Origin: Candidatus Eiseniibacteriota bacterium
GTDB lineage: Bacteria; Eisenbacteria; RBG-16-71-46; CAIMUX01; VGJL01
Assembly: GCA_041946735.1 (NCBI GenBank)
Contig: JBHGAY010000060.1
Coordinates: 1-10,020, forward strand
Length of the DNA: 10,020 nucleotides
Direction of reading: 5' to 3'
Below, one piece after another: positions 1 through 10,020 of this stretch. A program made the position numbers and the translations under genes. Numbering within the stretch: position 1 is the first letter of the stretch; the number at the start of each line of letters is the position of its first letter. The notes beneath the pieces are model-generated. The model worked only from the letters and a program-made list of their open reading frames with translations, did no database searches and was not told where the DNA came from.

Positions 1-60
1 GCACACGGAGGCACGACGTTTCCAGCGCGGTTCGTGCTCGTAGCGGCGATGAATCCCTGA
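1..60 (+). pseudogene. comM: Interrupted comM/YifB-family Mg-chelatase-like AAA+ ATPase (end of the 5' fragment, truncated by element insertion)
   Basis: Frame +1 translates AHGGTTFPARFVLVAAMNP* (TGA 58-60). This matches the conserved ComM/YifB motif FPARFxLVAAMNPCPCG, with the Cys codon TGY converted to TGA. Only 19 codons are visible. Confidence 0.85.
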
Positions 61-1558
61 AGTTGCGTTGCTTTTTTGCAGCGACTTCAGAAGGCGTAGG
101 GAGGTAAAGCATTTGGATATGGACGGTTCCGTTCCCGATGGTGATCCGCTCGACAAGCTGCTCGATGACGGCTCGTTTATCTTCGAAGGCGAGCTTGGGC
201 CAGCGGGTGGAGAGGTCCCGGGCGCCGGTGATGACTTCGTCTTTGGAGATGAGCTGGATCTTCAGGAAGTCGAGCTCGCCCTGCAGACGCGGCATTTCGT
301 CCTCGATCTGCTTCAGGCGCTCCTCAAGGGGGCGGTACTGCCGCCGGTAGCCGTCCATGCCCAGGGCGTCCTCCATGTAGGCCTTTTGGATCTTGTTCAT
401 GGACCGGACGACCTTCGCCTGCTCCTTGGCGAGCGCCGCAAGGCGCTCCTCACGGTCCTTGACCTGCTGATTGCCCTGGGCCAGGTGAGCGGTGAGTTCT
501 TTGGGATCGAGGAAGTAGTTCTTGAGCTCCTCGGCGAAGACGGCCTCGAGGTCGCCGGTCGGGATCTTGGTGCGGCACTTGTAGCAGACGTACTTCGGGG
601 TATTGGAGGGGACGTACATCTTCTGGTTCTCGCCGCAGGAACAGAAGACGACGCCCGTGAAGAGCTGCTTCGGCTTTCGGGCGAGGCGCTTGCCATTCCC
701 CCGATTGCCCTCGAGGATCGCGTTGACCTGGGTCCAGAGCTCTTCGGTGATCAAGGGTTCGACAGGGGTTAGGACCCATTCGCTGCGGTCCTTGAGCTTC
801 CAGTTCTTCTTTTCGCCCAGGGACTTCGTGTAGTTCGCCCTTCGGATCCCCTTGGCCGTCGTGTCGCGCAGAAGCCGGTCGATGGTCGTGTCGGTGAACT
901 TCGAGCCGTTCCGGGTCCGGTGGCCCCGCTCGTTCAAAAGCCGAGCGACGGTCTTCTTCCGCCGGTGCTCCAGGTAGAGCTCGTAGATCAGCTTCCGGAC
1001 CGGGGCTTCCTTGGGATCGGGGACCAAGTCCCGGTCGAGCCAGCGGTAGCCGAAGGGGGCGGCGCCGCCTAGGGGCTTGCCCAGCTTCGCGCGGATGGGG
1101 ACCGAGGCCGCCACCCGCTCGGAGATCTCCTCCCGCTCCCACTGCGCCATGGCGGCGATCATCGTGTAGAAGAGCCGCCCGGCCGGGGTCGAGGTATCGA
1201 TCGACTCGTGGAGGGAGACTAAGTCCGCGTCGCACTCCCGGAAGATGTCGGCAAAATCCAGAAGCTCGCGGGTATTCCGCGCGAGCCGGGCAAGCTTGGA
1301 GAAGATGAGCCCTGAGATGTGCCCGGCACGCACGTCTTTCAGCATCCGCTGGGTCTCGGGGTACCCCATGACGGACTTTCCCGACAGAGCCTCCAGGTGA
1401 TAGACCTCCCGGACCCGCCAGCCCTTGACCTCGGCGTACATGCGGGCGCGCTTCTCGTGGTGCTCGGGGCTCTCGCCCCTGGCCTGGTCCTCGGTCGAGA
1501 CCCGGATCCAGATGCCGACGGGCTTCACTTGTTCGCCGCGAGATCCCGTCTTCTTCAT
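2..1558 (-). CDS. Large serine recombinase/integrase (resolvase catalytic domain, recombinase domain, zinc ribbon, coiled coil); 3' end open at the window edge
   Basis: Manual translation from ATG 1558 (RBS AAAGGAG upstream): MKKTGSRGEQVKPVGIWIRVSTEDQARGESPEHHE, with catalytic RVS (Ser21). Further motifs are SGKS, SKLARLARN, ESIDTSTPAGRLFYTMIAAMAQWEREEISER, PFGY and the zinc ribbon FCSCG...YVCYKC, followed by a coiled coil. No stop down to position 2 (519 codons), so it is absent from the ORF track. Confidence 0.95.
   Translation of the reverse strand, partial: MKKTGSRGEQVKPVGIWIRVSTEDQARGESPEHHEKRARMYAEVKGWRVREVYHLEALSGKSVMGYPETQRMLKDVRAGHISGLIFSKLARLARNTRELLDFADIFRECDADLVSLHESIDTSTPAGRLFYTMIAAMAQWEREEISERVAASVPIRAKLGKPLGGAAPFGYRWLDRDLVPDPKEAPVRKLIYELYLEHRRKKTVARLLNERGHRTRNGSKFTDTTIDRLLRDTTAKGIRRANYTKSLGEKKNWKLKDRSEWVLTPVEPLITEELWTQVNAILEGNRGNGKRLARKPKQLFTGVVFCSCGENQKMYVPSNTPKYVCYKCRTKIPTGDLEAVFAEELKNYFLDPKELTAHLAQGNQQVKDREERLAALAKEQAKVVRSMNKIQKAYMEDALGMDGYRRQYRPLEERLKQIEDEMPRLQGELDFLKIQLISKDEVITGARDLSTRWPKLAFEDKRAVIEQLVERITIGNGTVHIQMLYLPTPSEVAAKKQRNFRDSSPLRARTALETSCLRV
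45..80. other. Hybrid attachment site (attL/attR-type junction) between host comM and the integrated element; crossover at or just before about 59
   Basis: comM coding similarity ends abruptly at ATGAATCCCTG|AAGTTGCG, directly at the 3' end of a large serine recombinase. The exact crossover dinucleotide cannot be fixed without the other end. Confidence 0.7.
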
Positions 1559-1562
1559 GTTT

Positions 1563-1569
1563 CTCCTTT
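1563..1569 (-). promoter_or_regulatory. Shine-Dalgarno sequence of the recombinase
   Basis: Minus strand reads AAAGGAGAAAC-ATG. Confidence 0.75.
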
Positions 1570-1601
1570 GAGGGATGGCGCCCGTCTTGTGGGGTAAGAC
1601 C

Positions 1602-2561
1602 TCAGGGCTTCATCTTTTCCCGAATCTTTGCGGCCTGGACCATGGCTGCTTCGGCAACCTTGAGGATGTCGTCCGACCAGCATGCCCGAGCCAAACCCAA
1701 GTTCTCAATCTCTCTTGCGACGAATGTGACTCTCCCATCCCCTGATGGTTCCACGAATACTCCGGATTGCCCAAGGTGGCCGACAACCATACCGAGGAAT
1801 CGAGGTTGTTGGATCTCCAGCAGAGCTGGTTTGGATGCCGGCGTCGTCACTCCCCCCGCCAGAAACACCGGACTTCCGCTATTGCCACCAAGAGAAACTC
1901 CGTCGATGAGGAACTCAGAACCGGAGCCTATGCGCGCGATCGACCCCGCCCGGAGTACAGGGAGAATTCCATCGGTTCCAGGTACATTGGGAAACCCCAA
2001 GAAGAAGACGCTCATCCCAAGCGTCACCTCCCGACGAGGGAGAGGGTAACCCTCACCAATCGATTTCACGCGAGCGACTTTGATCGGACCGCCGTCCAAC
2101 TCACCTCGCACACCAATAGTCAGAGGGAATGCCGCAATGTCGATCAGGCTGTCGGGATGTGTGGCGTACAACTTCGATCCATTATCGTCCAGTTGATATC
2201 TCGTGCGCAGCCTATCTCCCGCCAGCACCCAGCTTCTTTCATTCAAGACAACTTCGTTGGATCCTCGGGCACCCAACCATGCAATCAACTCCGAGTCAGC
2301 GGCCACCGAGACGAAGATTGACTTGCGCATGAGCAGGTGTGCCGCGGTAACCACGATGAGTGGATCACCAGGTGAATTCCCGATCTTCATCAGAAATCCC
2401 GTACCATGATATACAAACGAGTCGCCCATGACCTTCTCAAACAGGACAAGGCAATCAGGGGTACTAGGGTCCATGCCCACTCCATGCGCCGGCTTTATAC
2501 TAAGAGCCGCCGCGGATAGGCAGACGATTGCGATGATGGGTAACAGGCAGCAATGCTTCAT
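1602..2561 (-). CDS. Secreted trypsin-like (clan PA, S1-like) serine protease, 319 aa
   Basis: N-terminal signal peptide (MKH..LLPIIAIVCLSAAALSIKPAHG); GTGF; catalytic triad motifs VTAAH, IDIA and GGNSGSPV; also LGFP. The start overlaps the upstream gene's stop (ATGA, 2558-2561). Confidence 0.88.
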   Translation of the reverse strand: MKHCCLLPIIAIVCLSAAALSIKPAHGVGMDPSTPDCLVLFEKVMGDSFVYHGTGFLMKIGNSPGDPLIVVTAAHLLMRKSIFVSVAADSELIAWLGARGSNEVVLNERSWVLAGDRLRTRYQLDDNGSKLYATHPDSLIDIAAFPLTIGVRGELDGGPIKVARVKSIGEGYPLPRREVTLGMSVFFLGFPNVPGTDGILPVLRAGSIARIGSGSEFLIDGVSLGGNSGSPVFLAGGVTTPASKPALLEIQQPRFLGMVVGHLGQSGVFVEPSGDGRVTFVAREIENLGLARACWSDDILKVAEAAMVQAAKIREKMKP

Positions 2562-5500
2562 GTTTGTCTCCGAATCCTCTTCATTGTTTTCACTACTACG
2601 CCCGAAACAAGCCGTCGCCTCTCCATTCTCTCGCTATCATTCACCCCCTTGTAGCTCACCCTAACCTGATACCCCCGCACCGTCTTCGTCTTCCCCGAAG
2701 CCTCGGCCTCCAGGCTCTCGAGCACGGCGAACGCCTCTTCCGGAACACAGAAGTGGACCCGCTCGGCCTGCTCGGGAAGCTCCTCCGCCACGGCCGCCTT
2801 GACGGCTTTGAGCGTCTTCTTCTCGCTCGAGACGAGTACGGCCCGATCGAATCCCGCCGCCAGGCACTTCTGCAGGTTCCCGAGCTCGTGCGCCGGGTCG
2901 GTTGTCACCGCGACCTCGCAGGCGACGGTGTGCTCGCCTTTTCGGAGCGAGACGTCGACGCTGCCCAGGCCATCCAAGACCTTCTCTTCGATCGTCACCC
3001 GCCAGTCGTGGGCCTCGCCCCAGCGACGGATCAGCTCCTGAACGTACTTGTGCTGCTGGCCACCCCGGCCGGGAGAGCTCTCCTTCGGAATCCGGGCGGT
3101 CCGCTTCGCCGCTTCCCTGGAGACGGGCGGCCGAGCCTCGGCTGCTGTCTCTTGCTCAGGCGCCGGCGTCTGGACCGGTTCCTTTTCGATCGGCTCCGAA
3201 GCTCTCCGAGGCTCGCGGTGGGGCGCTGTGATCTGATCGCGCTCAGGTGCCGCTCGCTGAAGCTCGGCTTCGACCTCTGCGCGCGACCGGGCGTACTTCT
3301 CCCGCGATCGCGCGGTCGCCTGCTCGCGGCGGGCGGGCCCGGTCTCCGGGTCGACCTTGGGGAGGGGTGCGGTGTCGAGTGTGAAATCGCACTCGGATCG
3401 CTCGACCCGCGCGATCGCCTGCCCCGTGCCCAAGTTCTGCAGGTCCTTGGCCTCGAAGTGGGCAAAGCCGCTTTCCAGCGCCCGAGCATCCTGGTCCCCG
3501 ACCCGGAAGCAAATCCTCGTGTAGGGGTTCGAGAGCACGGAGTTCAAGACTTCCGGGCTGCGGCTGGAGAGCTGCCTGAGATCCTGGTGCGCGAGGATCA
3601 GTCCCAGCCGGTACTTCCGCGCCCCCGAGAGCACCTGCTCCATCGTCGGTGTGACGAAGTTCTGAAACTCATCGATGTAAAGATAGAACGGCCGGCGCTC
3701 GGACTCGGCCACCTCCTGCCGGGAGAGCGCGGTCTGCTGGAGCTTCGAGACCAGCAGCGAGCCCAACAGGTAGGCGTTCTCCTCGCCGATCGCTCCTTGC
3801 GAGAGCCGCGCTAAGAGGATCTTCCCCTGGTCCATGAGCGCGCGGAAGTCGAGGCGCTCGCCCTGTTGCGCCACCATGTAGCGCACGAGCTTCGGCCGCA
3901 AGAAGGTGTCCAGTCGCGTCAGGATCGAGCCTTGCGGCTGCCCTCGCAGGAGCGGGAACTCGTGCTGCCAGTAGTAGACGATCTCGGGATCTCGGACGGA
4001 GGACAAGAACTCCTCGCGGAAGCGCTTCTCGACTAAGAAGAGCCGAAGATCGACCAGGGTCCCGCCGCGATCGCTCTCCAAGAACGCGGCAATCGCATTG
4101 CCGAGGACCGAGGTCATCTGATCACCCCAGGACGTCGACAGTCGGCGGAAAACGGCGACAAGGTCTGAGGAGAGTAGCGTCCGTTCGAGCTCGGAGTGGG
4201 CCGAGAGGATGTTGAACCCGACCGGCCAGTCGGCGTCCGCGGGATTCAGGAGCACGACGTCGTCCAGACGGCCCTCGGGGAGAAACTCCAGGACCCGGTC
4301 GACGAGGTCCCCGTGGGGGTCGAGGACGGCGAGGCCCTCGCCGCGCGCCAGGTCCTGGAGGATCATGTTCAGAAGGAGTGTCGACTTGCCCGTCCCCGAA
4401 GCCCCAATCACGTACATGTGGCGCGAGCGCTGGTCGGGATTCAAGGCCACCGGCACCGCCTTGCCGGCGTGGGTGTTGCTCCCCAGGCCGACGCCTTCCC
4501 CCAGCACGATGGCCGGTGCGCCTCTGGTCTTTCGAGCCTGCCGGTGGAGCTTCTCGCTTCGCACGGATTCCGACGGCGGGTGGACGAGCCCCGCAAGCTC
4601 CTCGACGTTCAGGATCATGCCGGATCGCCGGGAGGCCCTTTCGAGCAGATCCGACTTGTGGTCTTCGGAGTCATAGTCGTCGTTCGAGAGGGGCAGGAGT
4701 TCGTTGCCCGCGGGATCGGAGAACGCTCGGAGGCTTCCGGTCAGCGCCCGGGCAAGCTCCCAGACCCGGCCAAGGTCGGGGCTTGCCACCGCGACTCGGA
4801 CGACCACGGCGTAGAGCGGGCTTGCGACCTTCTCCTTCGTCGCGGCCGTCAGCTCGGGCGCATCGAGGAAGAAGGGCTTGCCGTCCTCGTCCCGTGAAGA
4901 GCGCCAGAAACTGGCCGCCCACGGATGACGGACGGGCTGGAAGAGGACCTGGACCAGGCCCAGTTCCTTCGGCTCTAAGTCAGATAGCGCCGCAGTAATC
5001 CCGATCAGCGGATCGATGTCGAAGCTCCGGAAGGTCCGAAGCGGGAAGTGGACCTCCCGAGCAAGACCGAAGTCGACAATGAGCCGGAAGGCCTCGGGAT
5101 CCGACCAGAGCCCAGACAGGGGCTCTGCCGGCGTCACGACGAGATCCGGGAAGAAGGCCTTCAGCTGGCCGAGGAGGCCGTCCTCGGGGTCTCGGAAGGC
5201 CAGCCGGATCGCCACCTGGCTTTCCCGGCCGAGCACCTCGAACGCCAGGGGGGCGTGACCTGCCGGAAGGCCCACCAGGAAGCGTTCCACGGCCTCTCGC
5301 GGGACCTTGAAGGGCGGTGGGACGGCAAGAACGTACTCGGCGATCCGGCCGCCCGTCCGGGCTTCCTCGGGCTCAGGCTCCGCTTCGGCGTCTCGCACAT
5401 CCTCGAGGTCGGCTTCCGTTGGATTGCCCACGAGGAGCCGGCCGATTCCTCCAACCAAACGCGAGAGCAGGGTCGGGCGGAGACCGTCATCGAAGCCGAG

Positions 5501-5641
5501 ATCGGGAATCGGAGTCCCGTGGAAGCGGAAGGGGACGAACGGTGGCTCGAGGTCCACGGGCGTGTCGAAGAGGCGCCAACCCCGGCCGCGCCTCTCCCAC
5601 GCGTGGAACTGCTCCGTCAGGGCTTCGATCGAGTGGATCAC
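2558..5641 (-). CDS. VirD4/TrwB/TraG-like (FtsK-HerA superfamily) DNA-binding ATPase with a Pro/Glu/Arg-rich linker and a C-terminal PD-(D/E)XK-like domain, 1027 aa
   Basis: RHMYVIGASGTGKS (Walker A), VLDPHGDL, GFNIL, FYLYIDEFQNF (Walker B), ARKYRLGLILAHQ and FRVG..DA are coupling-protein motifs. The C-terminal GRGG..HKYVQ...EEKV...VDVSL...VACEVAVT resembles a restriction-endonuclease-like fold. GTG start. Confidence 0.88.
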   Translation of the reverse strand: MIHSIEALTEQFHAWERRGRGWRLFDTPVDLEPPFVPFRFHGTPIPDLGFDDGLRPTLLSRLVGGIGRLLVGNPTEADLEDVRDAEAEPEPEEARTGGRIAEYVLAVPPPFKVPREAVERFLVGLPAGHAPLAFEVLGRESQVAIRLAFRDPEDGLLGQLKAFFPDLVVTPAEPLSGLWSDPEAFRLIVDFGLAREVHFPLRTFRSFDIDPLIGITAALSDLEPKELGLVQVLFQPVRHPWAASFWRSSRDEDGKPFFLDAPELTAATKEKVASPLYAVVVRVAVASPDLGRVWELARALTGSLRAFSDPAGNELLPLSNDDYDSEDHKSDLLERASRRSGMILNVEELAGLVHPPSESVRSEKLHRQARKTRGAPAIVLGEGVGLGSNTHAGKAVPVALNPDQRSRHMYVIGASGTGKSTLLLNMILQDLARGEGLAVLDPHGDLVDRVLEFLPEGRLDDVVLLNPADADWPVGFNILSAHSELERTLLSSDLVAVFRRLSTSWGDQMTSVLGNAIAAFLESDRGGTLVDLRLFLVEKRFREEFLSSVRDPEIVYYWQHEFPLLRGQPQGSILTRLDTFLRPKLVRYMVAQQGERLDFRALMDQGKILLARLSQGAIGEENAYLLGSLLVSKLQQTALSRQEVAESERRPFYLYIDEFQNFVTPTMEQVLSGARKYRLGLILAHQDLRQLSSRSPEVLNSVLSNPYTRICFRVGDQDARALESGFAHFEAKDLQNLGTGQAIARVERSECDFTLDTAPLPKVDPETGPARREQATARSREKYARSRAEVEAELQRAAPERDQITAPHREPRRASEPIEKEPVQTPAPEQETAAEARPPVSREAAKRTARIPKESSPGRGGQQHKYVQELIRRWGEAHDWRVTIEEKVLDGLGSVDVSLRKGEHTVACEVAVTTDPAHELGNLQKCLAAGFDRAVLVSSEKKTLKAVKAAVAEELPEQAERVHFCVPEEAFAVLESLEAEASGKTKTVRGYQVRVSYKGVNDSERMERRRLVSGVVVKTMKRIRRQT

Positions 5642-5657
5642 GGGCTCTCGCCCCCGT

Positions 5658-5729
5658 TCACGTGACGATGGTTTCCAGAGTCGCGATGAGGAGCAGAATA
5701 GGCAAGCGGGAGAGGCAACACAACGGCAT
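5658..5729 (-). CDS. Candidate small hydrophobic peptide, 23 aa (MPLCCLSRLPILLLIATLETIVT)
   Basis: GGAGG lies 6 nt before ATG 5729 and the stop is TGA at 5660-5658. It fills the gap between the membrane-protein gene and the ATPase gene. Confidence 0.3.
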   Translation of the reverse strand: MPLCCLSRLPILLLIATLETIVT

Positions 5730-5776
5730 GTTGCCCCTCCCCGGGTTGGGCCACGAGCGGCCCGGGCGCGTTCCCC

Positions 5777-6439
5777 CTACTGGCGACTCAAGAGCTCGCT
5801 CAGGACGGGCTTCTCCTCCTCAGTGGTAAGGGCGCGGAGTCCCTTGCTCGCACGGAGGCCGCTGATCACCTCCTTGACCGCCGCCTCGACCTCGGCGCGG
5901 AACATCAGGGCCGTGTCGATCTGGTAGTACGTCGTCGGCCGGAAGATCGCCCGGTAGAGCGTGCCGACGACGGGAAGCATCATCACGGCTGACTCCAATC
6001 CTGGGCGGTTGCGGTGCGCAATACCGGCCACCAGCCACAAGACGAGAGGCAGCGTGAGCAGAGCGACGACCCCGCCGAGGATGGACTGCCAGCGACCGAT
6101 CACGTTCAGGACAAAGAACCCGGCGATGACGAGGAGGGCCATCCAGTCGACGAAGGTCGGCGGACGGATCGCGAGCCACCAGGAGAAGAAGTACCCCGTG
6201 CCGAAGGGAGCGGCGCAGATGTCGAAGACGATGTTGCGCCGCTGGACACGGAAGTACTCCCGATCGGCCGAAGCCACCCCGCCCTCCCGATACCGGATCC
6301 GTTGATACCCAATGTCGGGGACCTTACGGCGAGCGAGGGACTGCATCACCGCATCGTAGAAATCACCGGAGGAGGTGCGGAAATCTTCGAAGGACTGCTG
6401 CCAATGGGCGAGGACTTCGGGATAGGCTTGCCGAGACAT
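5777..6439 (-). CDS. Hypothetical membrane protein (about 220 aa; soluble N-terminal domain followed by 2-3 hydrophobic segments)
   Basis: The ORF track gives 5777..6517, but ATG 6439 (MSRQAYPEV) has a strong RBS (AAGGGAGGAACACTC-ATG). Sequence FDICAAPFGTGYFFSWWL is followed by hydrophobic stretches WMALLVIAGFFVLNVIG and ILGGVVALLTLPLVLWLVAGIA. Confidence 0.8.
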   Translation of the reverse strand: MSRQAYPEVLAHWQQSFEDFRTSSGDFYDAVMQSLARRKVPDIGYQRIRYREGGVASADREYFRVQRRNIVFDICAAPFGTGYFFSWWLAIRPPTFVDWMALLVIAGFFVLNVIGRWQSILGGVVALLTLPLVLWLVAGIAHRNRPGLESAVMMLPVVGTLYRAIFRPTTYYQIDTALMFRAEVEAAVKEVISGLRASKGLRALTTEEEKPVLSELLSRQ

Positions 6440-6517
6440 GAGTGTTCCTCCCTTTCTGACCCTTATCGCCTCGATCTTCGCAATCGATCCCCCCGGTTCT
6501 CCTCGATGGCTCGGCAC

Positions 6518-7546
6518 CTAGATCGAGTCGAGCCGAGAAGAATGAGAGAGTCCCCACCGGACCTGGGCGATCACCAGCACTCGGTCCGGCTCCTCTGCAG
6601 TCGCGAAACGGCTGCCAAACCCGGTGGAGATCCAGAGGCCCTCGGACGCTCGAAACTCCAAACCGGCGGACCATTTGCCGCTCGAGGCGTCCGCCGGTGC
6701 CCCCTTCTCTAAGTGCTCGATCCCAACAAGCTCGAGAAAGGCATTGGTGCTTCCCGAGCCTATGCGTGCCTGCCCGGCGTAGCGGAGGACGCCTTCCCGT
6801 GGTTGGGCGGCCTGGGCTTGCCGTTGGTCGAACTGCACCTGAGCCCGAAACTGCCCGTACTTCATCAGCGGCTGTGACCCCACGAGCCAGATGCTCGTGC
6901 CGAGCCACTCGGTGCGGTCAATCTCAGAGCGTTCAGCCCTCGCTCCTCCTGCCAGGCCTAACGAGAGCCTCCGGGCGTTCCAGTGCTCCTCGAACCAGGC
7001 GGCGCGCAGCTCCTCGCTCTTCTCGTCTAGGCACGACTGTGAGCTTCGTTCCCCAGGCAGCGCGGGCCGACAATCCGCGAACGCCTTGGCAAGCGCGGCC
7101 GTGAACCCCGGATCCCTCATCGGGTCGCCTTCATCGACCAGATTGACTCGAATTCCGACCGCCAGGTCCGTCGAAGCGCTGTCCCCAGAGGCTCGGGCCG
7201 TACCGACCGAGAGCTGGGTGGTCGCAAGCACGTAGGCGCTCCAACTCTTCTGATAGCGATCGAGATCGACGTTCAAGGCGGGAAGCAGCGTGGAGGGAGT
7301 GACATCGAGTGCAAAGCCTTGCTGGATCTCTCCGTGTTCTCCGACCGCATTCAGAAGCGTGACGGCCATATCCCGCGGCGACCCGGGTTGGGAGGCGGCC
7401 GTCGGCGAGACGCCGAGAAACGTGAAGGCCGGAGCGTCCGGGACGGCGTAGTCGACGACCGGTACATCCGCACCGGGTGCGACCGTCGCAGTGATGGCGA
7501 GTAGGACGAGTGCGAGCACGCACGGCAAGACGGAGTCGTTCCACAT
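6518..7546 (-). CDS. Exported hypothetical protein, probably an outer-membrane beta-barrel-like protein, 342 aa
   Basis: Signal peptide (VLPCVLALVLLAITATVAPGA); GGAGG RBS overlapping the upstream stop codon. The C-terminal half has alternating amphipathic strands (LSLGLAGG, SIWLVGS, FRAQVQF, WSAGLEF, LWISTGFG, VIAQVRWGL). Confidence 0.7.
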   Translation of the reverse strand: MWNDSVLPCVLALVLLAITATVAPGADVPVVDYAVPDAPAFTFLGVSPTAASQPGSPRDMAVTLLNAVGEHGEIQQGFALDVTPSTLLPALNVDLDRYQKSWSAYVLATTQLSVGTARASGDSASTDLAVGIRVNLVDEGDPMRDPGFTAALAKAFADCRPALPGERSSQSCLDEKSEELRAAWFEEHWNARRLSLGLAGGARAERSEIDRTEWLGTSIWLVGSQPLMKYGQFRAQVQFDQRQAQAAQPREGVLRYAGQARIGSGSTNAFLELVGIEHLEKGAPADASSGKWSAGLEFRASEGLWISTGFGSRFATAEEPDRVLVIAQVRWGLSHSSRLDSI

Positions 7547-7558
7547 GGCCCGCGCCTC

Positions 7559-7915
7559 CTAGATGAGCTCGACGGAGCCGGTGACTTCCGCCGCTCCCTT
7601 TCCGCTCACCTTGCCTTGATGCAGGAGATCCCCGCCAATAAGGAGTTTCCCGCCCTGAGAGAGCAGAAGGAGGGCCACGTAGCGCGTGTGAGGGTTTCCT
7701 CCGACGGCGAACCAGTAGGCGATCTCCGTCCCCCGGGACAGTGCTCCGAGACTCTGATGGTCAGGGGCGGAGTCCCGGGATTCCCCGTCGGCCACGACCT
7801 GCCACTCGTCCTCGGGGACTCGCGTCCAGATCCGATAGTTCACAACGTGTGGCGTTCGAACAACGACGTTCACCTCGAGCTCCATCGCGGGGTCCATGCG
7901 GATCGGTCCGGCCAT
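7559..7915 (-). CDS. Hypothetical protein, 118 aa, beta-rich
   Basis: RBS GAAGGGAG before ATG; protein-like composition; 12-bp gap to the next gene; first ORF after the sigma-54 promoter. Confidence 0.65.
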   Translation of the reverse strand: MAGPIRMDPAMELEVNVVVRTPHVVNYRIWTRVPEDEWQVVADGESRDSAPDHQSLGALSRGTEIAYWFAVGGNPHTRYVALLLLSQGGKLLIGGDLLHQGKVSGKGAAEVTGSVELI

Positions 7916-8038
7916 GGCAACGCTCCCTTCCCCTTGGGTGGGTGTGGTGGGAGAACGGCTTCATCCCGAAAAGGGGGCCGACCGGAGAAACGGCGCCGAC
8001 CCCCTTCGGCTCTCCGGATCTCCCGAGCTCGCAAGTCA

Positions 8039-8054
8039 TGCAAGGGATGTACCA
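8039..8054 (-). promoter_or_regulatory. Sigma-54 (RpoN) -24/-12 promoter
   Basis: Minus strand TGGTAC-ATCCC-TTGCA versus consensus TGGCAC-N5-TTGCW: exact GG-N10-GC spacing and one mismatch. It is intergenic and points toward ORF 7915. Confidence 0.72.
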
Positions 8055-8127
8055 GCAGCAGAGAGGGTGGCTGGGTGGACGAGATGGGCTTTGCCCAGGA
8101 GGCTCAATCCTAGGAATAACAGAAAAG

Positions 8128-8220
8128 TCCGACATATCGGAGCAGGACGCACGAAGAACGGGCAGGACGTCGCCTATTCCTCTGTCAGATCATGACACGT
8201 TCAGGGGCGTCGTTGACGAC
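8128..8220. promoter_or_regulatory. Cluster of palindromes/direct repeats; candidate upstream activator (enhancer) sites
   Basis: TCCGA-CATA-TCGGA (8128-8141); GCAGGACG twice, 20 bp apart (8142-8149, 8162-8169); TGTCA-N5-TGACA (8183-8197); GTCGT-TG-ACGAC (8209-8220). All lie about 75-165 bp upstream of the -24 element. Confidence 0.45.
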
Positions 8221-8404
8221 AAGCTTGCTTGACTCGCATCCCCTGCCGGGTCGAGAGGCCCGAGGCCGTGAGCCTTCCGGGGATGAGCCGCATTCTCGCC
8301 GCTTCACGGTGGCGGTTGCCCTGCGCCGCTCACCAAAACGGCGGGGTCGCCTTACGGGGAGCGCTGCCTCATGGCAAGGCACATGCGGCGCGAGTGACGG
8401 CGGC

Positions 8405-8797
8405 TCATTGGCGCCGGTAGCTTCGTGGTCCTTCATCCCAGCGCATCGTAAGGTCGTCTCCCTGGATCGAGTAGGCGACCTCGTTGACTTCGCTTCCCGG
8501 CTCGCCGGAGATCCGCACCGTCTCGCCTCGGTCCTCGAAGGTCATCTCCTCCTCGGTCGTGCAGCCCAGATCCGCACAATCGGGCCCTTCACAGCAGTAC
8601 GTCAGCACGAAGGAGCAGTCGGACCGAAACTCGAGGGTCTCGGTCGTCGTCGTGCCTTGGGCGCTCCGCAAGCGCTCCCAGATTCCGGCAAGTGGCGAGC
8701 GATCGCAGGATCCGGAAGGATTGGTGGACGAATCGCCGCCACAGGCGAGAGTCAGGAGACTCGCAAGAAGAAGGGTGCCTGGGAACGCTGCTCGCAT
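8405..8797 (-). CDS. Lipoprotein with a lipocalin-like beta-barrel domain, about 130 aa
   Basis: Better start at ATG 8797 (RBS GAGGAGGAGG): MRAAFPGTLLLASLLTLAC-GGDSSTNPS, with a lipobox and Ser/Gly linker. LAGIW, LEFRSD and YSIQGDDLTM are lipocalin-like patterns. Confidence 0.75.
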   Translation of the reverse strand: MRAAFPGTLLLASLLTLACGGDSSTNPSGSCDRSPLAGIWERLRSAQGTTTTETLEFRSDCSFVLTYCCEGPDCADLGCTTEEEMTFEDRGETVRISGEPGSEVNEVAYSIQGDDLTMRWDEGPRSYRRQ

Positions 8798-8859
8798 GGG
8801 AAGCCTCCTCCTCATTTCGTGCCCCATAGCTTCGACACCAAGCAGTTCTCTGGCTCGCC

Positions 8860-10020
8860 TCATTGGGCGACGCCCAACACGAGCACGTCCGTCGCCGACC
8901 CTTGACTCAAGCGTCGCGACCACGTTTCGCCGTTGTCGTCGGAGGTGAAGACGCCATCGAAGCCGGCCGCGAAGATCCGTCCCGTCGCCGGATCGATGGC
9001 GAGGCCCGCCAGCACTCCGGCCGGCACGGTCCAGCCCGACCAGCTCCGCCCGCCGTCGGTGGAACGATTCGAACCGACGTAGACGATCGAGGCATCTTGG
9101 GGATCGAAGACCACCGACCGGCGGTCGGCGGCGTCAGCGACCCTCGTCCAGGACTGAAGGCGGTTTTCGCTCAGGAAGATGCCGGCTCGGGTGCAGGCAA
9201 CCGCTCGGGCCGGATCGCTCGGATCCATTCCGACCGAGTACACACTGACTCGGAGGAGCCCTTCCCGGGCTCCGATGGGAAGCGCCGCCCAGGTGGCACC
9301 TTGGTCCGTGCTCTCGAAGAGCCCGTTCGTCGCGACATCCGGGTCGAAGTCGTCGGTTCCGATCACGAACCGGTTGGGGTTGTCAGGATCGATCCAGACC
9401 CAATGGACGGCGACCGCAATCGACGGATACGAAGGCACCTTGGGAAGGCCGGCGGAGATGTTGGTCCAGCTGACGCCATCCGTGGAGCGGAACACGCCCC
9501 CGGCGTCGCCGGTGATGCCATTGCAGTCCGCGGATGGCGCATACCCGGCCGTGCCGAGCAGGAACATAGCGGATTGGACCGCAAGGGCCTGGATGCCCGT
9601 GCATGTCAGAAGCGCCGGCTCGCTCACCAAATCAAAGGTCTTGCCGCGATCTTGGCTTCTGTAGATCCGGGTCACCCCTTGTCCGGACCAGTCCCGGATG
9701 CCCGAGGAGGCCCAGACGACGTCGGGGGCGTCAGGGTCGGCAACAAGAATGCCGACCTGATGCCGGAAGTCGCTGAGTTCGCTTTCCTGCCAACTTCGGC
9801 CGCCGTCTTCGGAGTACCAGACTCCGTTGGACTCCGTCCCCACGAGCACGTACGAAGACGACTCCGTCGGGGTCTGCCCGCTTGCCGTGTTGGACTGCGC
9901 CGACCCGTTGCCAGCGGCATCGACGCTCTTGATTCGGAAGACATACGTGTGGCCCGACGCCAGGCCCGTGACTTGGAACGTCTCCGTCGTTCCGGCGGCG
10001 GCAGGAGTCGGCTCCCCGGA
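8860..10020 (-). CDS. 3' part of a probably extracellular protein: fibronectin type III domain followed by a BNR/Asp-box beta-propeller; 5' end outside the window
   Basis: The frame stays open from 9849 to the edge: SGEPTPAAAGTTETFQVTGLASGHTYVFRIKSVDAAGNGSAQSN (FN3 signature). Seven Asp-box-like repeats follow: SEDGGRSW, SQDRGKTF, STDGVSW, STDQGATW, SENRLQSW, STDGGRSW, SDDNGETW. Confidence 0.85.
   Translation of the reverse strand, partial: SGEPTPAAAGTTETFQVTGLASGHTYVFRIKSVDAAGNGSAQSNTASGQTPTESSSYVLVGTESNGVWYSEDGGRSWQESELSDFRHQVGILVADPDAPDVVWASSGIRDWSGQGVTRIYRSQDRGKTFDLVSEPALLTCTGIQALAVQSAMFLLGTAGYAPSADCNGITGDAGGVFRSTDGVSWTNISAGLPKVPSYPSIAVAVHWVWIDPDNPNRFVIGTDDFDPDVATNGLFESTDQGATWAALPIGAREGLLRVSVYSVGMDPSDPARAVACTRAGIFLSENRLQSWTRVADAADRRSVVFDPQDASIVYVGSNRSTDGGRSWSGWTVPAGVLAGLAIDPATGRIFAAGFDGVFTSDDNGETWSRRLSQGSATDVLVLGVAQ

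Follow-up and report, generated by a model that had tools for sequence, protein, structure and literature searches.

An integrative element in comM whose backbone combines a serine integrase, a partner protein and a type IV secretion-derived ATPase fused to a nuclease-fold domain

The DNA analysed here (the window, an entire contig of 10,020 bases from a Candidatus Eiseniibacteriota bacterium) shows a mobile element lying inside the competence gene comM, from its integrase-proximal end onward; the remainder of the element lies beyond this assembly. Four genes on the minus strand encode an integrase, a trypsin-like protease, an ATPase and a small membrane protein, here called the "adaptor". Our preferred reading, held tentatively, is that the window carries the backbone of an integrative element which is widespread, specific to comM and probably mobilizable, and whose DNA pump is fused to its own nuclease. 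The DNA transfer that we infer would begin with excision by the integrase; the fused nuclease would then cut or nick the element DNA, and the motor, which the adaptor would anchor to the inner membrane, would export it from the cell. Export would run either through the mating channel of a helper, the element then being an integrative mobilizable one, or with the help of the second small ATPase and the membrane proteins that some relatives encode. A combination of integrase, ATPase-nuclease and partner recurring in many bacterial phyla is apparently undescribed: no published account of such elements came up in full-text searches, in keeping with the suggestion of an earlier, sequence-only reading that they form an under-described class.

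Bases 1..59 (plus strand) close the 5' portion of comM (codons ...AAMNP) and form the chromosomal half of the left attachment junction; they are identical to bases 1-59 of a second contig, C69, where the ComM frame continues (PCPCG...). Because comM is uninterrupted on C69, both filled and empty sites exist. The crossover falls at or just before bases 58-59 (TG). The element-side half of the junction (60..100, no strand assigned) is defined by an alignment of seven junctions, all of which share the crossover point and the conserved element-side motif; the first 12 bases on that side (ARGTTGCGTTGC consensus) are conserved in elements of different phyla. The same comM junction is found in six related elements, whose hosts belong to Acidobacteriota, Verrucomicrobiota, Bacteroidota, Desulfarculus and Eisenbacteria, and the trio of integrase, ATPase and membrane protein is widespread across phyla. 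Logan contigs in an independent run (X2) show the element across the whole window, and at base 59 the end of one runs on into the C69 sequence (intact comM). Of 61 related genomes, just five, G000 among them, have the family of the ATPase N-domain.

The integrase (2..1558, minus strand), whose reading frame crosses the junction into comM, is a large serine recombinase, as had been proposed: it matches Resolvase (1.4e-30), Recombinase (1.8e-20), weakly a zinc ribbon (Zn_ribbon_recom) and the phrog_95 integrases (2.6e-111), is CcrB/XisF-like, and shares 48-70% identity with the integrases that follow the ATPase in related loci. The element is inserted by this recombinase at a fixed comM codon, with the motif MNP|CPCG. 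Resistance islands such as AbaR of Acinetobacter, and other elements inserted in comM, also interrupt this natural-transformation gene; the islands are Tn7-like transposons, not serine-integrase elements.

The ATPase-nuclease fusion (2558..5641, minus strand, 1027 aa; profile matches and homologue alignments) derives from type IV secretion machinery, with a VirB4-type N-domain, a coupling-protein-type hexameric motor and a nuclease. Residues 1-92 (5366..5641, minus) are an N-terminal extension with a conserved WExRGRGW...LEPPF motif, to which no role is assigned (alignments A1 and A2, model). Residues 93-391 (4469..5365, minus; model pLDDT 90.7) have the fold of the VirB4/TrwK N-terminal domain: the best Foldseek match is 7o42_E (E 1.8e-5), and VIA gives Z 16.0 (rmsd 3.6, 244 residues), against 8.1 for the next unrelated row. 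The sequence-only reading had seen no HUH relaxase, VirB4 or phage genes in the 10 kb; profile searches of the window likewise matched no HUH relaxase, VirB4 or phage structural family, but the VirB4 N-domain fold is present within the ATPase itself. VirB4/TrwK of plasmid R388 (PDB 7o42, 7o41, 8rtb) is built alike, with this domain preceding a RecA-like motor that belongs to the same superfamily. Unlike VirB4, the ATPase misses the VirB4 profiles (22 bits against a cut-off of 643 for TIGR00929; no PF03135), its motor scores better with coupling-protein profiles, and it has the extra 92-residue N-terminus and a C-terminal nuclease.

The motor occupies residues 392-800 (3242..4468, minus). Pfam matches of the ATPase are TrwB_AAD_bind (1e-11), TraG-D_C (2.2e-6), T4SS-DNA_transf (3.4e-6) and DUF87 (1.1e-6), the coupling-protein profiles exceeding their Pfam cut-offs on the motor, which also matches conju_CD1115, SXT_TraD and TrwB (1e9r, 3.2e-6). 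Eighteen homologues show no variation in Walker A (4379-4405, minus; G413-T421) or Walker B (D657 E658). The VirD4/TrwB motifs originally reported are thus confirmed, and the reported lack of an N-terminal transmembrane anchor also holds, a hydropathy scan having found no transmembrane segment in the ATPase.

Residues 861-983 (2693..3061, minus) form a PD-(D/E)xK (restriction-endonuclease-fold) domain, in agreement with the nuclease-like domain first proposed: the model has pLDDT 89.8, and all 50 VIA matches listed are PD-(D/E)xK folds (best Z 10.0). Conserved residues are H864, E885, D896, E909, E919 and K925, the acidic residues and the lysine being invariant or near-invariant across 53 sequences. 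The domain would be expected to act as a nuclease.

Among annotated proteins, the ATPase is closest to coupling proteins from ordinary Gram-positive type IV conjugation operons, in which the coupling-protein gene immediately precedes a MOBC (PD-(D/E)xK) relaxase gene. An analogy drawn previously with actinomycete TraB-type transfer finds no support. The two nearest, on Bacillus subtilis plasmid NZ_CP154917.1 and Embleya plasmid NZ_CP108778.1, are 24-31% identical over residues ~193-778 (part of the N-domain and the motor), and each lies immediately upstream of a gene of the relaxase family Replic_Relax (PF13814), which is also the MobC relaxase superfamily. Unlike the window, both operons also encode VirB4 (AAA_10), TcpC, TcpE, PrgI, TrbL_4 and NlpC/P60, with VirB6-like proteins and hydrolases among them; there is no fused nuclease, and no integrase within the annotated operon stretches. 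The fused domain lies where such operons and the streptococcal IME_Class_8 encode a separate MOBC relaxase, Replic_Relax being a PD-(D/E)XK family (PMC3424549). According to Coluzzi et al. (2017; PMC5357655), IME_Class_8 is compact and comprises a VirD4 coupling protein, a relaxase of the MobC/PF13814 type and a serine integrase. It resembles the present element in the compact order of coupling protein, PD-(D/E)xK-fold DNA processing and serine integrase, and in being integrative with no mating pore of its own. It differs in that here ATPase and nuclease form one protein, the nuclease not being recognisable as PF13814, a VirB4-like N-domain replaces the transmembrane helices of the ATPase, a conserved adaptor gene precedes it, the hosts belong to diderm phyla and the target is comM. 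The C-terminal domain has no profile similarity to Replic_Relax (hhalign probability 1.1%), an observation that counts against mobilization.

The adaptor (5777..6439, minus; ATG at 6439, 220 aa) matched no known family; an upstream GTG would extend the gene to 6517, giving a 246-aa ORF. Hydropathy and homologue alignment show a hydrophobic hairpin (residues 119-169 of the longer ORF) flanked on either side by a conserved soluble part, consistent with the small membrane protein already noted just upstream of the ATPase. The hairpin is absent from 10 of the 25 alignment rows shown, seven of which have an N-terminal hydrophobic stretch and three neither, so membrane anchoring is not universal among adaptor homologues. 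The adaptor may contact the ATPase.

The conserved backbone order is adaptor, ATPase-nuclease, a variable cargo slot, integrase. Of the 52 related loci in which the ATPase is full-length and the sequence reaches at least 900 nt further upstream, 50 have an adaptor homologue, which in 41 of them ends no more than 400 nt from the ATPase start. In 25 of 54 loci the ATPase is followed downstream by an integrase of more than 40% identity, and the identity of the integrase declines in step with that of the ATPase (for example 70/63, 63/59, 66/54 and 48/47%). With the same genes in the same order in dozens of loci, the arrangement is far beyond chance.

The main rival, which we regard as unlikely, is that adaptor and ATPase-nuclease are an element-encoded defence or exclusion module: a membrane-associated translocase that would reel in and cut incoming phage, plasmid or transforming DNA, protecting host and element, comparable to MAD7-MAD8 or HerA-nuclease modules. 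The motor matches the PADLOC mad8 model (residues 404-743, 1.7e-20) and, weakly, HerA models; MAD7-MAD8 likewise pairs an ATPase with a nuclease, and PMC13662399 describes this module as required for defence by MADS. ATPase plus PD-(D/E)xK is a common defence architecture, and Can2, Cap4, McrC and NucC are among the fold neighbours of the C-terminal domain. Related elements carry defence cargo (type II CBASS, PDC-S15, and SIR2-HerA in the slot adjoining the ATPase), and insertion in comM has already disabled a transformation gene. Virulent-type Bacillus phages (50 records) and plasmids typed as non-mobilizable (313 of 392 records) encode distant homologues that share the motor and part of the N-domain; these, like the mad8 match, also speak against mobilization. 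However, the window holds no other mad gene, the N-domain and adaptor are apparently not components of MADS as set out in the portion of PMC13662399 at hand, and no PADLOC family consistently matches the C-terminal domain (the most-matched, an HTH, in 2 of 53 members). The nearest annotated relatives come from conjugation operons, and the pair is a fixed backbone co-diverging with the integrase across phyla, whereas true defence cargo differs between elements.

How minimal is the element? The sequence-only reading supposed a core with no relaxase. No HUH relaxase was found in the window, and three complete related elements (23-41 kb) have no HUH relaxase or VirB4 families at E <= 1e-4 (94 of 98 called ORFs scanned, the other four spanning joins between sequence pieces). 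Some relatives, however, carry ArdC (10 of 56 full-length loci), a MOBC relaxase (Replic_Relax, 7), a DnaG-type primase (8) or RadC (10), and a second small coupling-protein-like ATPase occurs in 18 of 44 loci with at least 9 kb upstream, so the family is less minimal than the window suggests. ArdC, Replic_Relax and the small ATPase were not found elsewhere in the host MAG. Where a separate small ATPase and a MOBC relaxase do occur, mobilization may really be the task of those two, and the large ATPase would then have another function. Since the host MAG (94.8% complete) has no canonical VirB4 (TIGR00929) and PF03135 is found in only one of five other element-bearing genomes, a resident helper is often not visible; this weighs against mobilization, as does the absence of mating-pore families from the three complete elements.

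The same missing VirB4, in the host and in four of the five other carriers, would suit a self-sufficient, much-reduced conjugation apparatus with the adaptor and ATPase-nuclease as its engine, not dependent on a helper and in many elements joined by a polytopic membrane protein and the second small ATPase; we consider this distinctly unlikely. The N-domain is VirB4-like and the adaptor gene lies directly upstream of the ATPase gene, as virB3 does of virB4. The second ATPase gene adjoins or lies near the pair, and directly upstream of the adaptor in five Verrucomicrobiota-type loci is a protein of 779-807 aa with ~5-6 N-terminal transmembrane segments. This polytopic protein has no family match, however, the module is incomplete in most loci, and no outer-membrane, pilus or peptidoglycan-hydrolase components were recognised in the three complete elements, whose hosts are diderm.

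It is very improbable that the ATPase-nuclease serves the excision, integration or maintenance of the element itself, whether by giving direction to or remodelling the adjacent serine integrase (as nuclease-fold XisH does for XisF) or by resolving or segregating the excised circle. Such a role would fit the fixed place of its gene immediately upstream of the integrase gene (the two adjoin in 15 of 31 loci, with a gap of 4-170 nt), the similarity of the integrase to XisF (2.8e-30), the XisH-family fold neighbours (2okf, Z 7.2; 2inb, Z 7.1) and the Xis/AlpA-type HTH_17 fused in 5 of the 120 homologues listed, but dozens of other nucleases reach Z scores at least as high as those of XisH, the pair is accompanied in some loci by a tyrosine integrase (8 of 55) and in others by no integrase within reach, and we know of no serine-integrase directionality factor resembling a 1000-aa hexameric translocase.

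Returning to the element as an integrative, probably mobilizable one, the three co-oriented genes first noticed are all present on the minus strand, but a fourth, the protease gene (1602..2561, minus), had been overlooked. The secreted 319-aa product has a signal peptide and matches Trypsin_2 (1.2e-5; 26.5 bits, slightly below the 27.6 cut-off), PADLOC PDC-S45 (8.6e-9) and phrog_7688 (3.8e-10); the ORF overlaps the ATPase stop by 4 nt and has a GC content of 0.55-0.58, against 0.61-0.70 in its surroundings. As no homologue is found in any of 78 related loci, the protease is cargo, placed in the variable slot that separates the ATPase gene from the integrase gene. A secreted 342-aa protein (6518..7546, minus), of no family recognised by profile search and not conserved in related loci, is probably cargo as well. 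In other elements the slot holds zero to six unrelated genes.

The 1027-aa ATPase and the small protein encoded upstream of it (the adaptor) are read here, tentatively, as a module that processes and exports the DNA of an integrative, probably mobilizable, element. The window is the entire contig C57 of the host MAG (4.9 Mb, 94.8% complete), and all its relevant genes lie on the minus strand: a large serine recombinase (2..1558), a 319-aa secreted trypsin-like protease (1602..2561, with a 4-nt overlap with the ATPase gene stop), the ATPase (2558..5641) and the small hydrophobic-hairpin protein (5777..6439, as an ORF reaching 6517 from an upstream GTG). From 6518 onward come a 342-aa secreted protein, several small ORFs and a BNR/sortilin-type glycosidase. 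The sequence-only reading had described three co-oriented genes; all three are there, on the minus strand, but it had overlooked the protease gene.

The insertion cuts short the competence gene comM. Window bases 1-59 are identical to the start of C69, another contig of the MAG, where the ComM frame runs on (...AAMNP-CPCGFLGD...); after base 59 the two part, window 1-100 holding the filled junction and C69 the empty site. Because the window sequence beyond that base is element DNA, comM occurs in this assembly both with and without the insertion. The crossover is defined and without a long target duplication, as for serine recombinases, and in this genome is seen at the left junction only. Logan contigs of X2, an independent sequencing run from a different study, cover all 30 window bins and show no differences in the pieces listed; here, too, one end at base 59 runs on into C69 sequence. 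Among RNA runs, none is listed as containing the window sequence. Within the population, the element is polymorphic or undergoes excision. No circular (attP) junction was found in contigs or in the few raw reads (nine from run X9, all partial). The coexisting alleles occupy window 1-59 and G000:C69:1-549, with the branching repeated in X2; in contigs of the source run, word depth was 43.4 for the common 59-base piece vs 23.5 for the element contig, depth here not being a share of cells.

The same codon is used elsewhere. In relatives, where comM was recognized by Mg_chelatase-type matches, the comM 5′ part ends at that codon, facing the integrase 3′ end, in six loci (L003, Eisenbacteria; L005 and L007, Acidobacteriota; L026, Desulfarculus; L042, Niastella; L071, Verrucomicrobiota), and the comM side of the aligned junctions reads ...ATGAAYCCNTG, the element side ARGTTGCGTTGC. 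In five further loci (L023, L025, L029, L062, L064; mostly Bacteroidota) this side is taken by the comM 3′ part, which directly adjoins the ATPase or integrase end and has the same orientation; relative to comM, the element therefore lies the other way round. L050 has an apparently intact comM directly after the ATPase and lacks the integrase. Where a single contig contains both comM halves, the distance between them is about 35 kb (G001), 41 kb (G003) or 77 kb (G005), and the interrupted copy in G002 spans about 23 kb. Truncation of comM by insertion should lower natural transformation, which would shield the element from removal by recombination.

By domain criteria, the product of 2..1558 is a large serine recombinase: it matches Resolvase (106.7 bits) and Recombinase (73.5 bits), with Zn_ribbon_recom below its cut-off (18.4 bits), it matches the integrase family phrog_95 at 2.6e-111, and its IRVSTEDQ motif corresponds to the RVST...Q serine motif. 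Its frame (window 2-100) has no stop ahead of the junction and continues into comM antisense, so the attachment site is internal to the integrase gene, at its 3′ end, and integration and excision must give the protein different C-terminal tails. In related loci, too, integrase ORFs either overlap the comM fragment or come very close to it. With an attachment site that falls within strongly conserved codons of a gene found almost universally, these integrases could be useful as site-specific integration tools in many phyla.

The sequence-only reading of the ATPase as a coupling-protein-like enzyme with no membrane anchor proved accurate. Walker A and B are invariant in the alignment, and the motor exceeds the Pfam cut-offs of TrwB_AAD_bind (44.8 bits; cut-off 20.5), TraG-D_C (28.0; 22) and T4SS-DNA_transf (26.6; 20.1). 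The same region (about 392-800) also matches DUF87, the CD1115 VirD4-like family, SXT TraD, PADLOC mad8 (1.7e-20) and phrog_5156, a family of unknown function (4.8e-61), and the ATPase matches the TrwB structure sequence at 3.2e-6; NCBIfam equivalog cut-offs are not reached (conju_CD1115, 49.8 vs 250). No hydrophobic segment occurs anywhere in the 1027 residues, and thus no N-terminal transmembrane anchor of the coupling-protein kind. The N-terminus is modeled instead as a soluble VirB4-like domain (residues 1-395, pLDDT 90.7, from a 53-sequence alignment): residues 93-391 superpose on the N-terminal domain of R388 TrwK/VirB4 (TrwK 18-431) with a VIA Z of 16.0 and an rmsd of 3.6 Å over 244 residues, the next unrelated VIA entry having a Z of 8.1, and the TrwK N-domain is also Foldseek rank 1 (E 1.8e-5). 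Sequence profiles of VirB4 gave no such match: TIGR00929 (VirB4_CagE) scored 22.4 bits vs a cut-off of 643.1, neither PF03135 nor PF12846 (AAA_10) matched the ATPase at E ≤ 0.01, and a PDB sequence-profile search with the N-domain returned nothing below E 2, leaving fold comparison as the informative evidence. Among the 120 homologues listed, five (P0064, P0067, P0077, P0090, P0123) carry an N-terminal HTH_17 of AlpA/excisionase type, a hint that the ATPase may recognize specific DNA.

The C-terminal region (residues 846-1027, model pLDDT 89.8) has as its core, at 861-983, a predicted PD-(D/E)xK fold with the restriction-endonuclease-like alpha-beta-beta-beta-alpha-beta arrangement. All 50 VIA matches listed are PD-(D/E)xK proteins, led by NucS (2vld) and AF1548 (both Z 10.0) and including BamHI, Can2, PaqCI, FokI, Hjc, and XisH; weak Pfam matches were to CoiA_nuc (5 of 53 members), SfsA, PDDEXK_9, and Mrr_cat. 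In 53 sequences H864, E885, D896, and E919 are invariant and E909 and K925 are present in at least 90%; E885, D896, E909, and K925 are the putative catalytic positions. Searches with the C-domain gave no consistent PADLOC family among the 53 C-domains and nothing meaningful in PDB sequence profiles. Taken as a whole, the ATPase is thus a type-IV-secretion-derived translocase with its own putative nuclease, VirB4-like at its N-terminus by modeled fold and closer to coupling proteins in its motor by sequence.

The adaptor has no Pfam, NCBIfam, PADLOC, or PHROG match, and the protein atlas offers only unnamed look-alike clusters. Conservation is concentrated in about 100 N-terminal and about 80 C-terminal residues, and the hydrophobic hairpin lies between these two regions. 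The hairpin is missing in 10 of the 25 alignment rows displayed, seven of which have an N-terminal hydrophobic stretch instead and three none; the small protein is best described as an adaptor, in most cases but not in all a membrane-anchored one. Complex prediction with ATPase residues 1-395 gave 0.22 and 0.01 against a mark of 0.32, values that neither support nor oppose binding.

This unnamed ATPase family is widespread. A word-index search scored 8,000 candidates, of which 4,820 are full-length homologues at E ≤ 0.001; the best 119 non-self homologues (947-1073 aa) are 51-64% identical over 90-100% of the length, and none of the 120 listed carries a source name beyond a generic domain label. 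A genome scan found 78 loci in many phyla, including Acidobacteriota, Verrucomicrobiota, Bacteroidota, Gemmatimonadota, Planctomycetota, Desulfobacterota, Eisenbacteria, and candidate phyla, and the N-domain family occurs in 5 of 61 host-related genomes (the host included), one copy each. The expectation that the trio would recur across phyla was borne out by tblastn: of the 52 loci where the ATPase is full-length and the upstream sequence long enough, 50 encode the adaptor, its gene ending within 400 nt upstream of the ATPase in 41 of them, and a closely related serine integrase follows on the same strand in 25 of the 54 loci with enough downstream DNA. Clustering of ORFs gave similar counts (adaptor, 46/53; integrase, 27/55), with tyrosine integrases in eight. 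Integrase and ATPase identity drop together across loci.

Annotation of three complete relatives covered 94 of their 98 called ORFs, the remaining four spanning joins between sequence pieces. As had been noted for the window, where profile searches matched no HUH relaxase or VirB4 family, neither kind appears at E ≤ 1e-4 in these three complete elements, which also lack mating-pore families. They carry extra serine recombinases and, at the far end, adjoining the comM 3′ part, a double-HTH protein. A second, small coupling-protein-like ATPase (about 390-510 aa), whose identity to the motor of the large ATPase is 33-40%, is present in 18 of the 44 loci with at least 9 kb upstream. In the Verrucomicrobiota-type order it is followed by ArdC, Replic_Relax, a DnaG-type primase and, further on, an HTH gene, a 779-aa protein with about 5-6 TM segments, the adaptor, the large ATPase and the integrase; the 779-aa protein of L058 has no usable protein-atlas match. 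Replic_Relax genes occur in 7 of 56 related loci; the 10-kb window contig has none, nor a mating pore. A prophage is ruled out: capsid, tail, and terminase families are absent from the window, which gave only weak P-loop or fibronectin-type matches, and likewise from the three complete relatives.

The best partial matches in the plasmid collection, where no record covers 80% of the ATPase query, are coupling-protein genes of Gram-positive conjugation operons, each directly followed by a Replic_Relax gene; those operons, in addition, have a separate AAA_10 VirB4, TcpC, TcpE/PrgI, a VirB6-like protein and hydrolases. Replic_Relax (PF13814) has been placed in the PD-(D/E)XK superfamily (Steczkiewicz et al., PMC3424549) and equated with the MobC relaxase superfamily by Coluzzi et al. 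(PMC5357655), whose streptococcal IME_Class_8 is a compact combination of a VirD4 coupling protein, a MobC relaxase and a serine integrase. The fused nuclease sits where the PD-(D/E)xK relaxase does in those systems, between coupling motor and serine integrase. What it has in common with MOBC relaxases is fold class and equivalent gene position: hhalign of the 53 C-domains against 10 Replic_Relax proteins gave a probability of 1.1%, and PF13814 is not among the 25 listed of the 61 Pfam families that the C-domains matched. The combination of coupling protein, PD-(D/E)xK relaxase and serine integrase is already known from integrative elements; new here are the motor-nuclease fusion, the VirB4-type N-domain replacing TM helices, the conserved adaptor, the fixed comM target and the spread over many diderm phyla. 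Within the literature collection covered, full-text search found no description of these elements and nothing relevant on comM with a serine recombinase or integrase, on PF26449, or on a coupling protein-endonuclease fusion.

The reading as a DNA-processing and export module is favored by the nuclease taking the relaxase position, by the ArdC, primase, and RadC context, by the Xis-type HTH fused to some homologues and by the co-divergence with the integrase. Of the features by which integrative mobilizable elements are recognized, those found here are the element's own integrase, the comM site and the coupling-type ATPase; pore absence is judged from the three relatives only, because this element is incompletely assembled. 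Against the reading, no similarity of the nuclease to PF13814 could be detected; neither the host nor four of the five other carriers shows a helper VirB4; the small ATPase and MOBC relaxase of some relatives could be the true mobilization pair; and Bacillus phages, as well as plasmids typed as non-mobilizable, have distant homologues. Those in large virulent-type Bacillus phages (for example phage G gp156, CP-51, SP8) are 22-25% identical over residues about 130-740, so that the combination of N-domain and motor also exists outside conjugative elements.

One alternative is that the adaptor and ATPase serve defense or exclusion, an ATPase-nuclease immune module made from conjugation parts. The mad8 match of the motor and the MAD7-MAD8 precedent (PMC13662399) speak for this; MADS, however, is an eight-gene operon (mad1-mad8), and in the window the mad8 model alone was matched, none being matched by the other eight proteins scanned, and we consider such a role unlikely. 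It seems more doubtful still that the pair is a self-sufficient, reduced conjugation engine. Adaptor and fusion would then drive an unrecognized reduced DNA-transfer machine targeting the same comM codon in diderms of many phyla, with the fused PD-(D/E)xK domain as its relaxase and no classical type IV secretion system needed; in many relatives the second small ATPase and the polytopic membrane protein would assist. We give little credence to the pair controlling the integrase or maintaining the excised circle.

If the fusion does move element DNA, as the export-module reading has it, these would be a new, large class of integrative elements of environmental bacteria. Search tools based on relaxases or VirB4 would probably miss the class, since no HUH relaxase or VirB4 family was matched in the window or the three relatives. 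The elements carry anti-phage systems and other cargo: in the complete relatives this includes a type II CBASS, a PDC-S15 candidate, ABC transporters, an IS element and three ArdC copies.

In the host MAG, no comM 5′ part or right junction occurs on other contigs, and the small ATPase, ArdC, and Replic_Relax were not found on any of them. Contig C55 and the right end of the window have only an 87-base repeat in common (window 9863-9949 and G000:C55:1-87, 96.6%), which is probably why the assembly breaks there; the contig ends inside the BNR/sortilin-type glycosidase gene, which has an MXYO-CTERM-family match. A listed joint from 4350 to 9000 was disregarded: one side has only 21 letters, and it comes from a single contig.

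Two relatives have additional comM copies or parts. The Acidobacteriaceae region G001:C4:88971-159647 (L081, L082) has one comM 5′ part and two 3′ parts about 33 kb apart, and its 35-kb element carries four copies of a 143-162-aa double-HTH gene, which suggests tandem accretion of several elements at one site. In Desulfarculus (G002:C1:3314448-3339152; L086, L087), there is also an intact comM of 532 aa; it is encoded on the opposite strand, a little inward of the far end of the interrupted copy, and is adjoined by a complete type II CBASS (cyclase, E1-E2, JAB, patatin); the element region may carry or neighbor a replacement comM.

The protease matches the PADLOC single-gene defense candidate PDC-S45 (8.6e-9) and phrog_7688, and its gene is translationally coupled (ATGA overlap) to that of the ATPase. 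Neither it, the 342-aa protein nor the other upstream genes have a homologue in any of the 78 related loci. The interval between ATPase and integrase is empty in 15 of 31 loci and otherwise holds one to six unrelated genes, among them SIR2-HerA, UmuD/C-like proteins, antitoxins, RadC, and a small HTH protein. Because the protease is not conserved, the content of the slot varies and the GC of its gene is lower than that of the surroundings, we regard it as cargo in a variable slot. SIR2 with HerA is a known anti-phage system; the pair occupies this slot, between large ATPase and integrase, at L020:9088-12188.
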